64,000 nucleotides of DNA from the NCBI RefSeq assembly GCF_000027125.1, contig NC_017626.1, one strand, 5' to 3'. Each line of letters starts with the position of its first letter. Position 1 is the first letter of the stretch. Origin of the DNA: Escherichia coli 042. GTDB lineage: Bacteria > Pseudomonadota > Gammaproteobacteria > Enterobacterales > Enterobacteriaceae. Below the pieces are notes generated by a model. It saw only the letters and a program-made list of their open reading frames with translations, had not been told where the DNA came from and searched no databases. The translations under genes were made by a program, and so were the position numbers. Below, piece by piece: positions 3,132-61,736 of the stretch.

Positions 3132-3144
3132 CACGTCTCCTCGG

Positions 3145-3732
3145 TTAATCGGTGGGTAAATGCTGAGAAATAAAGTGACGGGTCAGCGAGTGTGCGAGAG
3201 GTTTATCCAGCGGTTTGCCGCTCAGTGCCGCGCGCAGCCATAATCCGTCAATCAGCGCGGCAAGTCCGTAGCCCGCTTCCTGCGCCTGTTGGCGCGGTAA
3301 CTCGCGGCGAAATTCGCTCACCAGATTCGACAATAAGCGGCGGCTGCTCACCTGCTGCAAACGGTAAAGCATCGGCTGATGCATACTGCTGGCCCAGAAC
3401 GCCAGCCAGGCTTTCATCGCAGCATTACTGACCTGAGTCTCATCGAAATTCCCGTCAACAATCGCCTGTAATCGCTGCTCTGCACTGCCCTGCGGAAGTG
3501 CATGTAATCGATTCAAAACCGCGTCACGCAGCTGAGTGGTGATATCGCGCATGGTTGCTTCCAGCAGACCATTTTTGTCCCTGAAATAGTGGCTGATGAT
3601 CCCCGTAGAAACGCCTGCACGGCGGGCGATCTGCGCGATCGTTGCATCGTGCATGCCCACTTCATTTATTGCTTCCAGCGTGGCGTCGATCAGTTGTCTG
3701 CGCCGGATCGACTGCATCCCCAATTTGGGCAT
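3145..3732 (-). CDS. betI: TetR-family repressor of the bet regulon
   Basis: ORF 3145..3750; conserved N-terminus [22 protein letters not shown] places the start at 3732; TetR-type HTH. Confidence 0.9.
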
Positions 3733-3860: not shown

Positions 3861-5894
3861 ATGACAGACCTTTCACACAGCAGGGAAAAGGACAAAATCA
3901 ATCCGGTGGTGTTTTACACTTCCGCCGGACTGATTTTGTTGTTTTCCCTGACAACGATCCTGTTTCGCGACTTCTCGGCCCTGTGGATTGGCCGCACGCT
4001 GGACTGGGTTTCTAAAACCTTCGGTTGGTACTATCTGCTGGCGGCAACGCTCTATATTGTCTTTGTGGTCTGCATCGCTTGTTCGCGTTTTGGTTCGGTG
4101 AAGCTCGGGCCTGAACAATCCAAACCGGAATTTAGCCTGCTGAGCTGGGCGGCGATGCTGTTTGCTGCCGGGATCGGTATCGACCTGATGTTCTTCTCCG
4201 TAGCCGAACCGGTAACGCAGTATATGCAGCCGCCGGAAGGCGCGGGTCAGACGATTGAGGCCGCGCGTCAGGCGATGGTCTGGACGCTGTTTCACTACGG
4301 CTTAACCGGCTGGTCGATGTATGCGCTGATGGGCATGGCGCTCGGATACTTTAGCTATCGTTATAATTTGCCGCTCACCATCCGCTCAGCGTTGTACCCG
4401 ATCTTCGGTAAACGGATTAATGGGCCGATTGGTCATTCAGTGGATATTGCAGCGGTGATCGGCACCATCTTCGGTATTGCCACTACGCTCGGTATCGGTG
4501 TGGTGCAGCTTAACTATGGCTTGAGCGTACTGTTTGATATTCCTGATTCAATGGCGGCGAAAGCGGCACTGATCGCCTTGTCGGTGATCATCGCAACGAT
4601 CTCTGTCACCTCCGGTGTCGATAAGGGCATTCGCGTGTTATCGGAACTCAACGTTGCGCTGGCGCTGGGGTTGATCCTGTTCGTGCTGTTTATGGGCGAC
4701 ACCTCGTTCCTGCTTAATGCGCTGGTGCTGAACGTTGGCGACTATGTGAATCGCTTTATGGGAATGACGCTCAACAGTTTTGCCTTCGACCGTCCGGTTG
4801 AGTGGATGAATAACTGGACGCTCTTCTTCTGGGCATGGTGGGTGGCATGGTCGCCGTTTGTCGGCCTGTTTCTGGCGCGTATCTCGCGCGGGCGCACCAT
4901 TCGCCAGTTCGTGCTGGGCACGTTGATTATTCCGTTTACCTTCACGCTGTTATGGCTCTCGGTATTCGGCAATAGCGCGCTGTATGAAATCATCCACGGC
5001 GGCGCGGCATTTGCCGAGGAAGCGATGGTCCATCCGGAGCGCGGCTTCTACAGCCTGCTGGCGCAGTATCCGGCGTTTACCTTTAGCGCCTCCGTCGCCA
5101 CCATTACTGGCCTGCTGTTTTATGTGACCTCGGCGGACTCCGGTGCGCTGGTGCTGGGGAATTTCACCTCGCAGCTTAAAGATATCAACAGCGACGCCCC
5201 CGGCTGGCTGCGCGTCTTCTGGTCGGTGGCGATTGGCCTGCTGACGCTTGGCATGCTGATGACCAACGGGATATCCGCGCTGCAAAACACCACGGTGATT
5301 ATGGGGCTGCCGTTCAGCTTTGTGATCTTCTTCGTGATGGCGGGGTTGTATAAATCTCTGAAGGTAGAAGATTACCGCCGTGAAAGTGCCAACCGCGATA
5401 CCGCACCGCGACCGCTGGGGCTTCAGGATCGCCTGAGCTGGAAAAAACGTCTCTCGCGCCTGATGAATTATCCGGGCACGCGTTACACTAAACAGATGAT
5501 GGAGACGGTCTGTTACCCGGCAATGGAAGAAGTGGCGCAGGAGCTGCGGTTGCGCGGCGCGTACGTGGAGCTAAAAAGCCTGCCGCCGGAAGAGGGACAA
5601 CAGTTGGGGCATCTGGATTTGTTGGTGCATATGGGCGAAGAGCAAAACTTTGTCTATCAGATTTGGCCGCAGCAATATTCGGTGCCGGGCTTTACCTACC
5701 GCGCACGTAGCGGTAAATCGACCTACTACCGGCTGGAAACCTTCCTGTTAGAAGGCAGCCAGGGCAACGACCTGATGGACTACAGCAAAGAGCAGGTGAT
5801 CACCGATATTCTCGACCAGTACGAGCGGCACCTTAACTTTATCCATCTCCATCGTGAAGCGCCGGGCCATAGCGTGATGTTCCCGGACGCGTGA
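3861..5894 (+). CDS. betT: choline transporter (BCCT family)
   Basis: 677-aa ORF starting MTDLSHSREKDKINPVVFYTSAGLILLF, polytopic membrane protein. Confidence 0.93.
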   Translation: MTDLSHSREKDKINPVVFYTSAGLILLFSLTTILFRDFSALWIGRTLDWVSKTFGWYYLLAATLYIVFVVCIACSRFGSVKLGPEQSKPEFSLLSWAAMLFAAGIGIDLMFFSVAEPVTQYMQPPEGAGQTIEAARQAMVWTLFHYGLTGWSMYALMGMALGYFSYRYNLPLTIRSALYPIFGKRINGPIGHSVDIAAVIGTIFGIATTLGIGVVQLNYGLSVLFDIPDSMAAKAALIALSVIIATISVTSGVDKGIRVLSELNVALALGLILFVLFMGDTSFLLNALVLNVGDYVNRFMGMTLNSFAFDRPVEWMNNWTLFFWAWWVAWSPFVGLFLARISRGRTIRQFVLGTLIIPFTFTLLWLSVFGNSALYEIIHGGAAFAEEAMVHPERGFYSLLAQYPAFTFSASVATITGLLFYVTSADSGALVLGNFTSQLKDINSDAPGWLRVFWSVAIGLLTLGMLMTNGISALQNTTVIMGLPFSFVIFFVMAGLYKSLKVEDYRRESANRDTAPRPLGLQDRLSWKKRLSRLMNYPGTRYTKQMMETVCYPAMEEVAQELRLRGAYVELKSLPPEEGQQLGHLDLLVHMGEEQNFVYQIWPQQYSVPGFTYRARSGKSTYYRLETFLLEGSQGNDLMDYSKEQVITDILDQYERHLNFIHLHREAPGHSVMFPDA

Positions 5895-58524: not shown

Positions 58525-59298
58525 TCAGAATTTCCAGGTCAGATGGGCTGCAAGTTGCAGACCGTTATAATCATCGGTTGGGGTGTCGTACCACACTTTA
58601 CCTGCCGTCAGCCCGAGATTAAGTTGCTCAGTCAGCGGTTGAATACGTTGCAGACTGACGCTCTTCATGCTGCCGTAGCGTGTTTCTGGCGTCCAGTCAT
58701 AGGTGTAAGCACCTGTTCCGCGGCTTAGCCATAGTTGCGTATAACCAGTGCCGCGCGGGTCATTCAGACGCACGGAAATCATATTGCTGTAACTACCACC
58801 TGCATCGCTGGAGTCATAATGGGTATAGCGATAGCTGGTGATCACCGGGCCAGTATAGAGGGATACGCCGCCTTGCCAGGCATCGACTTCGACATCATCG
58901 TAATATTTAGTGTAGCGATAACCGGTCGTGAAAAGCGTTTTTGGCAACAGTGCCAGGTTAATATCCTGACGAAAATCCTGGCGGGCAAAGACCGGCGTAT
59001 TATCCGCAAAGGCAATACCCGTTCGGGTTGTCAGCCAGTTATTCCATTTATACCAGACCGCACCCTGACCGCGAGTGGCATTGAAATGTTCAGTTTCATA
59101 ATCACGACGCCCCTGGGAAAGATTAAAAAGCAGCGTTGCGTTTTCAACTTTCGCCACCAGTTCAGCATACGCTAAATTACGGTTGCCATGATCGCCAGAA
59201 TAATCGGTAAAATCGTAGCCCGCGGTAATGGAAGTTAACCCGGCATAAGCGGGCAATGTGCTAAAAATTGCTGCCGCTAATAACGTCCGTTTTATCAT
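58525..59298 (-). CDS. yaiO: outer-membrane beta-barrel protein
   Basis: 257-aa ORF with signal peptide MIKRTLLAAAIFSTLPAYA and C-terminal ...HLTWKF. Confidence 0.88.
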   Translation of the reverse strand: MIKRTLLAAAIFSTLPAYAGLTSITAGYDFTDYSGDHGNRNLAYAELVAKVENATLLFNLSQGRRDYETEHFNATRGQGAVWYKWNNWLTTRTGIAFADNTPVFARQDFRQDINLALLPKTLFTTGYRYTKYYDDVEVDAWQGGVSLYTGPVITSYRYTHYDSSDAGGSYSNMISVRLNDPRGTGYTQLWLSRGTGAYTYDWTPETRYGSMKSVSLQRIQPLTEQLNLGLTAGKVWYDTPTDDYNGLQLAAHLTWKF

Positions 59299-59299
59299 T

Positions 59300-60010
59300 T
59301 TAATCTCCTGTACGGATAAGTTCTTGTCGGAGTGAATAAGTTCCGGTAGGTAAATTACGTTCTACAATCACGCGCGGGCCAAGTTGCGTGTTCGGGGAAA
59401 TAATTCGCCCAGGCAAAATAATAACTTGTACACCAAGGCGTGAACGCTGCCCGATATAACAACCTAATTTATCGCATTCGGTAGCGATAATTCCCTCTGG
59501 AGTTCGAACAGATACGGGCTGTTGATCCAGACGATGATTACTGGTACGTACTTGTGCGCCCAAATATGTCTGGTTTGCAACTACCGAGTCGGCGATAAAG
59601 CATTGCGGACCAATCGTTGCTTCCGCTTCAATAACCGCATTTTTAATTTCGGTGGCAAAACCAATTTTTACGCCATTGCTGATTATTGTGCCAGGACGAA
59701 TAAACGCATAATTACCTATCAGGCAGTTTGCGCCAATCACTACCGGACCCTGAATAACGGCACCGTGACAAATACGGGTATTCGCGCCGATAACAACTTC
59801 ACCTGCAGTTTCATCAATAATTACCTGGTCTGCAATCTGAATATTTTTCTCTTTAACATTAAGCTTCAGAAAGTTTTTCAGTTCCTGTGACAGAAGGTTG
59901 GGAATAAGCGGTTGACGCTTCCACCAGTGCGGAATAGCGGGTGGGTTTGTCGCGCTGAGGTTCGCGTCCAGTAAAAAAGGCAATAAGTCCATAAATAATC
60001 CAGATGGCAT
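59300..60010 (-). CDS. yaiX: hexapeptide-repeat (LbH) acyltransferase, uninterrupted; start codon uncertain
   Basis: 236-aa ORF with repeated [LIV]G-x-x-x-x-I hexapeptide motifs; the N-terminal ~50 codons overlap the yaiP 3' end in another frame; stop lies 1 bp from the yaiO start. Confidence 0.65.
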   Translation of the reverse strand: MPSGLFMDLLPFLLDANLSATNPPAIPHWWKRQPLIPNLLSQELKNFLKLNVKEKNIQIADQVIIDETAGEVVIGANTRICHGAVIQGPVVIGANCLIGNYAFIRPGTIISNGVKIGFATEIKNAVIEAEATIGPQCFIADSVVANQTYLGAQVRTSNHRLDQQPVSVRTPEGIIATECDKLGCYIGQRSRLGVQVIILPGRIISPNTQLGPRVIVERNLPTGTYSLRQELIRTGD

Positions 60011-61055
60011 AAGCTAATAATACATACACAACGGAAAGCGGTGCTAAAGGCACCAACAACCAGCAACGATGAAACCAGGCGCTAAAAGCACCAATAACAC
60101 AAACTACGCCGACCCAGATAAGCGGAAACATTGCCAACACCACACCATGCGGCCCGGTGGTAATGAATTCATTAAACCAGGTAGTGAGATAAATCCCAAC
60201 GCCATAAAGCACAACCAACAGCATAGGAAATATACTGAAGATACCGAAGCGGCTAAATAAAAGTCTTTTATGCAGGCGCATACAGACCGCGTAGCCCACA
60301 ATCCAACGCCGCCAGCGACGCCACTCCTCACGCGGGCTGTTGCATTCCTGTGGGTATACGATGCAGCGATTCGCCTGCCGAATACGGTAGCCGTTTGCCA
60401 CCAATGTCCAGGTGAGATCAAGGTCTTCGACTTTAGTACGATCCGAGAAACCGAACTTACGCAATACATCAGTACGGAACATCCCGCAGGCACCGCTGAT
60501 AATAAACGGTGCGCCGCCCACGAGCTGCTGTAGCGTGCGCTTCATAACAATCATCGGCAACTTTACGGTCGCGCGGATGTGTGGTAACAGACCCGCGCCT
60601 TTCAACGCAGTAGAGGGAATGCCGCCTACGGCATCGGCACCGCGCTCAATTTCTGCCAGCATATAGCCCATTCCGTCTTGATCGGGCGGAACATAGGTGT
60701 CGGCATCACTTAAAAAAACCTGGTCGCAGGTGGCGTAATTGAGGCCATTCATCAGCGCACCACCTTTACCGGTATTTTTTTGCGTGACGGCAACAAAGCG
60801 GTCGCCCCATTTGCGTTTGACTTCCTCCATGACCGATTCGGTATTGTCCGTGGAGCCGTCGTTTACGCAAATTACCCGGCAAAAATAAGGGTTACGCAGC
60901 AGATTATCCAGTGACTGTGCCAGACACGGGCCTTCGTTATAAGCAGGTATAATGGCGTCAATACAGCCTTTCTTTTGACTGGGTTTACGTTTTAGCGTAC
61001 TTAAAAACCATAGCAACATTGCTATGGACATACAGATAAATATCCAGGTTTTCAT
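59859..61055 (-). CDS. yaiP: family-2 glycosyltransferase with C-terminal transmembrane region
   Basis: 398-aa ORF; GT-A features (IIPAYNE, DGSTDNT, DAD, VEDLDLTW, ...REEWRRW) followed by several hydrophobic helices. Confidence 0.85.
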   Translation of the reverse strand: MKTWIFICMSIAMLLWFLSTLKRKPSQKKGCIDAIIPAYNEGPCLAQSLDNLLRNPYFCRVICVNDGSTDNTESVMEEVKRKWGDRFVAVTQKNTGKGGALMNGLNYATCDQVFLSDADTYVPPDQDGMGYMLAEIERGADAVGGIPSTALKGAGLLPHIRATVKLPMIVMKRTLQQLVGGAPFIISGACGMFRTDVLRKFGFSDRTKVEDLDLTWTLVANGYRIRQANRCIVYPQECNSPREEWRRWRRWIVGYAVCMRLHKRLLFSRFGIFSIFPMLLVVLYGVGIYLTTWFNEFITTGPHGVVLAMFPLIWVGVVCVIGAFSAWFHRCWLLVPLAPLSVVYVLLAYAIWIIYGLIAFFTGREPQRDKPTRYSALVEASTAYSQPSVTGTEKLSEA

Positions 61056-61064
61056 GCAATTTGC

Positions 61065-61736
61065 TCAAAGAATCATTTTATGAATTACAAAGCCTTCACC
61101 CAGATCGCTATTGACCTGTTGCCCGCGAAATTGTGCAACTGCACGCAGGCGATCCGGGCGCATATAATCACGATGGCCCTGGCTCTTATGCTGTTTTAAT
61201 GCAGCCAGTTTAATGGTGAAATATTCTTCTTCCACGGATTCAAAAACCTGTGGCATAAATGAAAGCCAGGTACTTGGCGTTTCATAGCCGAGAATTTGCG
61301 GAATAGCGCGACAGGCAACCATTGAGGCTTGATAGACTGCAAGATGATCCTGATGGCGGTCAGCATCATGCATGGTGTATACACGAATGATTTCTACATC
61401 AGACGGAATTTGTTTTTTAAGGACATCTTCCAGAGCGGAAATCATATCATTAAGTTGTAAATGAGTACGGGTGTCAGCAAAATTAAAATGAATAGTTTGT
61501 TGACACCCCAAAATGTTTAATGCTTCGAGTGATTCTTGATGTCGATTAATTATTTCACTCACGCCGGAATTACCCGATGTCATCACTACCGCTGCAATAT
61601 AGAACCCTTTTTTTGCAAGACGAGCGAGCGACGCGCCACAGCCCAATTCTATATCGTCAGGATGTGCGCCAATAGCAAGGATACCCTTTCTTTTATTTGC
61701 CGAAGAAAGGATGGCTGAATCTAAAACCTTATCCAC
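61065..61736 (-). CDS. yaiS: PIG-L/LmbE-family N-acetylglucosaminyl deacetylase
   Basis: 223-aa ORF with GTG start; conserved AHPDDIELG motif near the N-terminus; 9 bp upstream of yaiP. Confidence 0.8.
   Translation of the reverse strand: MDKVLDSAILSSANKRKGILAIGAHPDDIELGCGASLARLAKKGFYIAAVVMTSGNSGVSEIINRHQESLEALNILGCQQTIHFNFADTRTHLQLNDMISALEDVLKKQIPSDVEIIRVYTMHDADRHQDHLAVYQASMVACRAIPQILGYETPSTWLSFMPQVFESVEEEYFTIKLAALKQHKSQGHRDYMRPDRLRAVAQFRGQQVNSDLGEGFVIHKMIL

Follow-up and report, generated by a model that had tools for sequence, protein, structure and literature searches.

The window analysed here is a stretch of 64,000 nucleotides from Escherichia coli 042 (NC_017626.1), and the open reading frame list placed four minus-strand genes in it in the order yaiS, yaiP, the yaiX frame and yaiO. 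Using Pfam and NCBIfam models, yaiS (61065 to 61736, minus strand, 223 aa), which opens this conserved four-gene cluster, was assigned as a PIG-L deacetylase, yaiP (59859 to 61055, minus strand, 398 aa) as a family-2 glycosyltransferase resembling PgaC/IcaA, and yaiO (58525 to 59298, minus strand), which closes the cluster, as an outer-membrane beta-barrel. The yaiS-yaiP-yaiX-yaiO cluster was also found in Salmonella, Enterobacter and Citrobacter, and its combination of a deacetylase, a PgaC-like synthase, an acetyltransferase and an outer-membrane barrel represents a little-studied aggregation/exopolysaccharide system. A 901-bp query covering the yaiP-yaiX junction (59250 to 60150) was 100% identical to NZ_AP022298 from E. 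coli strain BEC1-S17-ESBL-09. The window carries yaiS as an uninterrupted PIG-L ORF of 223 aa, as compared to K-12 MG1655 where a CAG to TAG amber codon cuts it to 185 aa. In the window-identical strain PGAP labels yaiS a pseudogene 'missing C-terminus', and the same record carries an antisense 39-aa YkiC-like 'hypothetical protein' over the yaiS 3' end (61080 to 61199, plus strand) that is apparently an annotation artefact, prompted by the small protein YkiC of K-12.

Relative to yaiP, the yaiX reading frame is shifted by +1; it opens past a TAG at 60016 to 60014 and ends at 59300. The candidate starts in this frame were determined by an in-frame codon scan. The only canonical starts ahead of the beta-helix were ATG 60010, ATG 59992 and TTG 59983, all within yaiP, and past TTG 59983 only CTG and ATT occurred as start-like codons as far as GTG 59740, the codon of residue 91, deep in the hexapeptide (beta-helix) domain. 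A first-pass annotation of this DNA had reported that the only two ATG codons of the frame lie inside yaiP and that no Met codon follows the yaiP stop before the hexapeptide domain. The scan confirmed both statements, as no ATG, GTG or TTG was detected in the yaiX frame from the yaiP stop (59861 to 59859) to the beta-helix. The overlap between the two genes is 152 nt from the upstream ATG (60008 to 60010, minus strand), which gives a 236-aa form, and 134 nt from ATG 59992 (59990 to 59992, minus strand). As resolved below, the yaiX coding sequence runs from 59992 to 59300 on the minus strand, encodes 230 aa beginning MDLLPFLLD... and terminates at TAA (59302 to 59300), making 59859 to 59992 (minus strand) a dual-coding overlap with coordinates that agree with those curated for K-12. 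The sequence TAATG at the yaiP stop (59857 to 59861, minus strand) resembles a classic coupled start. Its ATG (59859 to 59857) was considered as a start for yaiX and rejected, as it lies in the third frame and opens a 12-codon ORF only.

Public resources carry at least five N-termini for YaiX, with products of 236, 230, 197, 193 and 174 aa. PGAP starts the gene at CTG 59881 (59879 to 59881, minus strand, 193 aa) in the window-identical strain and others, at CTG 59893 (59891 to 59893, minus strand, 197 aa) in another lineage, and at a GTG where GTA 59824 is GTG (174 aa), and these three products are called in thousands of genomes. The 230-aa form is used by the ENA and Logan gene calls and by some RefSeq proteins, and NCBI annotates the corresponding M[DE] start for the Citrobacter cronae, Salmonella and Enterobacter bugandensis orthologues. 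KEGG uses the 236-aa form, as does a 2026 paper that takes this variant as intact yaiX and remarks that it has no Shine-Dalgarno sequence (PMC13058169). In the curated K-12 MG1655 record the IS2-split yaiX starts at 382872 and yaiP ends at 382739, which corresponds to the second ATG and a 134-nt overlap. No family-specific NCBIfam model for YaiX reached its cut-off, so that no curated model guides the PGAP choice of start. A search of the accessible literature on yaiX, yaiP, yaiO and yaiS turned up no start-site mapping and no ribosome profiling or proteomics of intact yaiX. The start of yaiX is already known from the curated K-12 annotation, in which yaiX' (b4579) is an EcoGene/EcoCyc reconstruction of the IS2-split pseudogene with a start and a 134-nt overlap identical to those of the window; unlike K-12 yaiX', the window yaiX is intact and without IS2. 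What is new here is the evidence for this start, the probable error of the automatic RefSeq starts and the evolutionary route by which the overlap arose.

The N-terminus of YaiX was compared with that of its homologues. Proteins of about 200 aa from many phyla begin MWW or VWW and aligned to E. coli H22-W23-W24 (230-aa numbering). The WW motif (YaiX W23-W24; 59921 to 59926, minus strand) was nearly invariant in 65 homologues and corresponds to the ancestral-type N-terminus, while the CAC codon for His22 (59927 to 59929, minus strand) occupies the site of the ancestral ATG/GTG start. Six non-enteric loci (L010 to L013, L016 and L017), referred to here as class A, keep ATG or GTG at this site. 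In class A the glycosyltransferase ends ...RDKPTRYxxVVx* and its gene stops 11 nt past the first W base. The ATG/GTG-TGG-TGG start of the acetyltransferase is read in the +1 frame from the His/Val-Val-Val codons, giving a 14-nt overlap with the glycosyltransferase gene. The Arg codon of the T-R-Y motif is AGG or AGA in these loci and produces GAGG, AAGG or AAGAGA 7 nt before the acetyltransferase start. Stops in the +1 frame were present further upstream in four of the six loci (L012, L013, L016 and L017), and the two genes are clearly separate at ancestral-type loci. The acetyltransferase of a Kaiserbacteria candidate phylum locus (L014) has no upstream glycosyltransferase and still begins MWW, indicating that WW belongs to the acetyltransferase itself and does not arise as a side effect of the neighboring gene.

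We then compared 12 distinct enterobacterial loci from E. coli, E. whittamii, three Citrobacter species (one with two copies), Superficieibacter, a contig binned as Ignatzschineria, two Salmonella and two Enterobacter. Both reading frames were open through the overlap in all 12. The ancestral start and its ribosome-binding site were absent from every one of them: the codon before WW specified H, Y, P, R, A or L, and the yaiP Arg codon at the site of the ancestral Shine-Dalgarno sequence (CGC in the window; 59937 to 59939, minus strand) was CGN throughout. Each of the 12 loci instead carried an ATG followed by GA(C/T/A), reading M-D/E, 21-22 codons upstream of WW and equivalent to window position 59992, where the ATG is made by the yaiP codons TAT-GGA (Tyr-Gly). 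Four loci (L008 and L019 to L021) have a stop 1-2 codons upstream of this ATG, making it the first possible start there. ATG 60010 was present only in Escherichia (E. coli and E. whittamii); its position reads PTLSGLF or RTLSGLF in Citrobacter and the frame is closed by in-frame stops in the other genera. Glycosyltransferase tails in the enterobacterial loci extended 17-83 nt past the first W base and the length of the yaiP/yaiX overlap varied by genus from 83 to 149 nt. When yaiP codons were resampled using each species' own yaiP codon usage, the probability of obtaining both an open frame and an ATG was 0.07 for the window and 0.03-0.28 per locus. An open +1 frame of such length is unremarkable alone, but the retention of both the frame and the ATG in every locus exceeds chance.

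Selection on the two frames was assessed by codon-aligning the 12 enterobacterial yaiP genes and comparing synonymous differences with the gene-wide, amino-acid-specific expectation for each pair. These pairwise statistics come from related sequences that are not phylogenetically independent, and the ratios are descriptive and do not correspond to exact p-values. The observed/expected ratio for yaiP was about 1.0 along the gene and 0.98 over the 20 codons before ATG 59992. It dropped to 0.29 over the nine codons starting at the ATG, as compared to a minimum of 0.75 among 336 control windows, and was 0.63 across the 26 codons up to WW. Synonymous sites of yaiP between 60010 and 59992 varied normally. 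The yaiP Tyr/His codon was always NAT (0 synonymous differences vs 16.8 expected) and the Gly codon GGA was invariant (0 vs 43.1 expected). The frozen sites matched what yaiX needs: NAT-GGA supplies ATG-GA, ATT-GCC supplies L-L-P, a second GGA supplies Asp9, TAT supplies Ile/Met20 and GTG supplies WW. The corresponding ratio for yaiX was 0.15-0.29 in the leader, a low value due to the strong conservation of YaiP there, and rose to 1.04-1.19 right after WW, indicating no detectable constraint from the YaiP tail. This C-terminal tail (59859 to 59918, minus strand) consists of 19 aa and the stop and lies beyond the position of the ancestral stop.

The distribution of variation among codon positions was also determined. 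In the leader, variation was highest at the second codon position of yaiX, where yaiP has its wobble position. In the WW..E segment upstream of the PGAP CTG, yaiX position 3 was the most variable (0.55 vs 0.32 and 0.29), which is the pattern of the non-overlapping part of yaiX. Across genera, variation over the whole of yaiX was likewise concentrated at position 3 (0.58-0.62 vs 0.15-0.27). Within E. coli, 90.7% of 4,850-4,860 records matched the window at 99% identity or more across the overlap, and this level of identity was reached in 62.0% and 74.6% for equal-length flanks that are yaiP only and yaiX only, respectively. These data show selection on both frames over the first 66 nt of the overlap and on yaiX only over the remaining 68 nt.

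Local signals were evaluated at each candidate start. A weak Shine-Dalgarno-like UGGA (59999 to 60002, minus strand) was detected 6 nt before ATG 59992. It derives from an invariant YaiP Trp codon, and the site reads TGGAT, TGGGT or TGGGG in every enterobacterial locus. Nothing of this kind was found ahead of ATG 60010, and the view of the first-pass annotation that neither ATG has an obvious Shine-Dalgarno sequence was essentially right. It had also raised the prospect of orthologues with a conserved independent start and ribosome-binding site; the orthologues clearly share the start codon and share the ribosome-binding site weakly (UGGA/UGGG). The 60 nt around ATG 59992 fold weakly (-3.9 kcal/mol, z = +1.15), and RNA folding compared with shuffled controls gave no significant difference for any candidate start. 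A consensus scan of 59700 to 60400 for an internal promoter or leaderless mRNA feeding either ATG found none. ATT 59935 was considered as a rare start just before WW and discarded, as its equivalent is ATA in two loci and no ribosome-binding site precedes it; a requirement for a hydrophobic residue accounts better for its conservation. Several lineages carry ATG or ATT 2-3 codons before WW, and this codon could act as an additional start in those lineages. A terminator-like hairpin lies inside yaiP at 60039 to 60055 (minus strand), just upstream of the yaiX start region. Such sites occurred at chance level (1 found vs 0.9 expected).

YaiX is predicted to be a left-handed beta-helix acetyltransferase. 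The protein matched Hexapep (PF00132) at 64.5 bits against a cut-off of 27 and LbH_EIF2B at 63.6 bits, above its cut-off, and the substrate is stated to be not known (PMC13058169). An AlphaFold model built from 65 homologues had a mean pLDDT of 88.8, with values below 50 for residues 1-11 and 16-18 and about 82-87 from residue 21, and modelled short helices at residues 23-25, 31-33 and 36-41 run into the beta-helix. The closest solved structure was the C-terminal acetyltransferase domain of ST0452 from Sulfolobus tokodaii (E = 2e-34; TM 0.72, 32-34% identity). The YaiX fold is like the C-terminal left-handed beta-helix acetyltransferase domains of ST0452 and GlmU, but YaiX consists of this domain alone, lacking the nucleotidyltransferase half, and has its own WW N-terminal segment. 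The leader, residues 2-22 (DLLPFLLDANLSATNPPAIPH; 59927 to 59989, minus strand), is encoded over the conserved YaiP C-terminal segment GLIAFFTGREPQRDKPTRYSA, and its low pLDDT may come partly from the small number of aligned sequences that contain a leader. Starting translation at the PGAP CTG 59881 would remove residues 1-37, including WW and the modelled segment 23-37.

Taken together, these data make it likely that yaiX is independently initiated at AUG 59992 to give a 230-aa protein, 134 nt inside yaiP, and that the overlap is derived within the enterobacteria. The ATG and the open frame are conserved, the dual-coding constraint starts at the ATG, and the WW segment evolves as yaiX coding sequence. 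The ancestral arrangement would have been that of class A, in which the acetyltransferase starts at AUG/GUG-UGG-UGG, overlaps the upstream gene by 14 nt and has a ribosome-binding site of the GAGG type 7 nt before its start. In the Enterobacteriaceae this start and ribosome-binding site would have been lost and initiation shifted upstream by 21-22 codons, to an ATG that arises within the codons for the conserved Tyr/His-Gly of YaiP. The ancestral stop of yaiP would have been lost as well, leaving a tail of variable length. Initiation would occur de novo at AUG 59992 by way of the weak UGGA in an AU-rich, poorly structured stretch, and the N-terminal peptide expected from this start is MDLLPFLLDANLSATNPPAIPHWWK. 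With these features initiation is probably inefficient and unlikely to proceed by termination-reinitiation, and YaiX expression is probably low. Repair of yaiX in K-12 results in yaiP-dependent clumping according to an abstract cited in EcoGene 3.0 (PMC3531124), and, as far as that abstract goes, the native start therefore works.

Other starts were weighed against AUG 59992. Translation in Escherichia mainly from ATG 60010, producing the 236-aa protein, would agree with the position of this codon as the first in-frame ATG past the upstream stop, with its presence in both E. coli and E. whittamii and with its use for the intact form in PMC13058169. We consider this unlikely given that the codon is missing in Citrobacter, that stops close the frame in the other genera, that no Shine-Dalgarno-like element precedes it, that the constraint on yaiP synonymous sites does not extend to it and that the curated K-12 annotation takes the second ATG. 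It is possible that ATG 60010 acts as a minor extra start within Escherichia, where it is likewise conserved. The first-pass annotation had also proposed a non-canonical start near 59880, in effect the PGAP CTG 59881, and with a start there, at CTG 59893 or at a GTG further in, the long overlap would be an illusion. Its attractions are the thousands of PGAP calls and an AGGA just ahead of CTG 59881. The AGGA is separated from that CTG by 1 nt only, however, and PGAP chooses different starts from strain to strain. The 15 codons upstream of CTG 59881 (WWKRQPLIPNLLSQE) show a yaiX-frame coding pattern, a start at either CTG or at the GTG drops the invariant WW together with residues 23-37, which are modelled at a pLDDT of about 82-87, and distant homologues begin exactly at MWW. 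None of these PGAP starts, whether CTG or GTG, is supported by these data and we regard such a start as very unlikely. The automatic RefSeq yaiX starts are probably wrong: the models in thousands of E. coli genomes are without the conserved WW segment, and constructs made from public YaiX models may be truncated or extended.

Two further explanations dispense with an efficient independent start. The first holds that yaiX has lost its native start and is a decaying gene with little or no translation in E. coli. Neither the ancestral ATG nor the ancestral ribosome-binding site is indeed left, the replacement ribosome-binding site is weak and IS2 disrupts the gene in K-12. We give little credence to decay since variation is concentrated at codon position 3 over the whole gene across genera, about 4,450 of 5,426 complete E. 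coli genomes carry an intact yaiX and its repair in K-12 yields the phenotype given in the cited abstract. The second is a fusion of the YaiX domain to YaiP, through transcriptional slippage or through a programmed ribosomal frameshift (+1), a programmed frameshift having been suggested by the first-pass annotation. The yaiX frame does lie in the +1 direction that a fusion would need, the overlap contains a T6 run (59973 to 59978, minus strand) as the only plausible slippage site, and one contig with T5 in place of T6 encodes a YaiP-YaiX fusion. A search for a slippery heptamer (X_XXY_YYZ), which would promote a -1 shift, found none in the overlap, and the T6 and CCC +1 sites vary among orthologues, with TTT GTT in E. 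whittamii and TTT TTC in L022 at the position of the T6 run. The +1 re-pairing sites TTT-T 59978 and CCC-A 59945 are not followed by a stop or rare codon, and the next 0-frame codons (TTT, ACT, CCC, ACC and CTT) offer no stimulatory element. A frameshift would also leave the invariant ATG-GA unexplained, as an independent ATG has no role in it, and among the 120 listed homologues fused orthologues were absent except for the one 911-nt contig. We consider such a fusion exceedingly improbable. The fusion protein itself (P0031) was traced to this single Logan contig (L025, SRR28345966), the rest of its cluster being ordinary partial proteins, and its T5 probably reflects either an error in the homopolymer or a sporadic mutation.

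With initiation at AUG 59992 as the preferred reading, yaiP/yaiX is most likely a true long overlap of two same-strand genes, ordinary in kind though instructive, and involves no new mechanism. Palleja et al. found no real co-directional overlap of more than 60 bp, the longest real one being holD/rimI at 32-56 bp (PMC2478687). Like holD/rimI, yaiP/yaiX is a same-strand, out-of-frame overlap conserved in Enterobacteria with a length that differs between genera. At 83-149 nt it would be placed in their 'misannotation' class v (5' and 3' extension), although here the two extensions are genuine and conserved, and the locus is a counter-example to the rule that same-strand overlaps of more than 60 bp are annotation errors. 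It also illustrates how an overlap can grow stepwise, as the start and ribosome-binding site are lost, an upstream ATG is captured and the upstream stop is lost, with the captured ATG owing its existence to the protein sequence of the other gene, yaiP. The first-pass annotation had suggested a long coupled overlap. The overlap is real and conserved and runs from 59992 (134 nt), not necessarily from 60010. With its start 131 nt ahead of the yaiP stop, yaiX is unlikely to be coupled by termination-reinitiation. Huber et al. 2023 reported for E. coli that coupling is already lost at distances of about 20 nt (PMC10666635). The non-enteric locus, where the genes overlap by 14 nt and the ribosome-binding site lies within the first of them, is similar to short-overlap termination-reinitiation, unlike the E. 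coli locus with its distant start.

A more speculative proposal is that the overlap is maintained by selection, that it arose through a shift of the start by 22 codons into a conserved membrane-protein C-terminus (+1 frame), and that the resulting 22-residue leader (conserved M-D/E-L-L-P...D/E) has a role of its own. The leader might attach YaiX to YaiP, or it might keep the YaiX:YaiP ratio low. We put this forward only tentatively and regard it as rather doubtful. If it is true, the leader is more than a passive provider of a start, and a low YaiX:YaiP ratio would depend on yaiP ribosome traffic.

Several minor observations were made on the cluster itself. Copies of the yaiP-yaiX region were found on plasmids (24-30 places) and numbered up to 7 per genome, and Citrobacter braakii ATCC 51113 carries two diverged copies of the cluster (L005 and L009). 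One 348-aa protein from a single Logan contig (P0039) joins TauA-like substrate-binding domains to the C-terminal half of YaiX, suggesting a deletion or misassembly between tauA and yaiX. In Enterobacter sp. PGRG2 (L022) the yaiX homologue has a long C-terminal extension that overlaps yaiO by 86 nt (3141 to 3226), a second long overlap in the same cluster.
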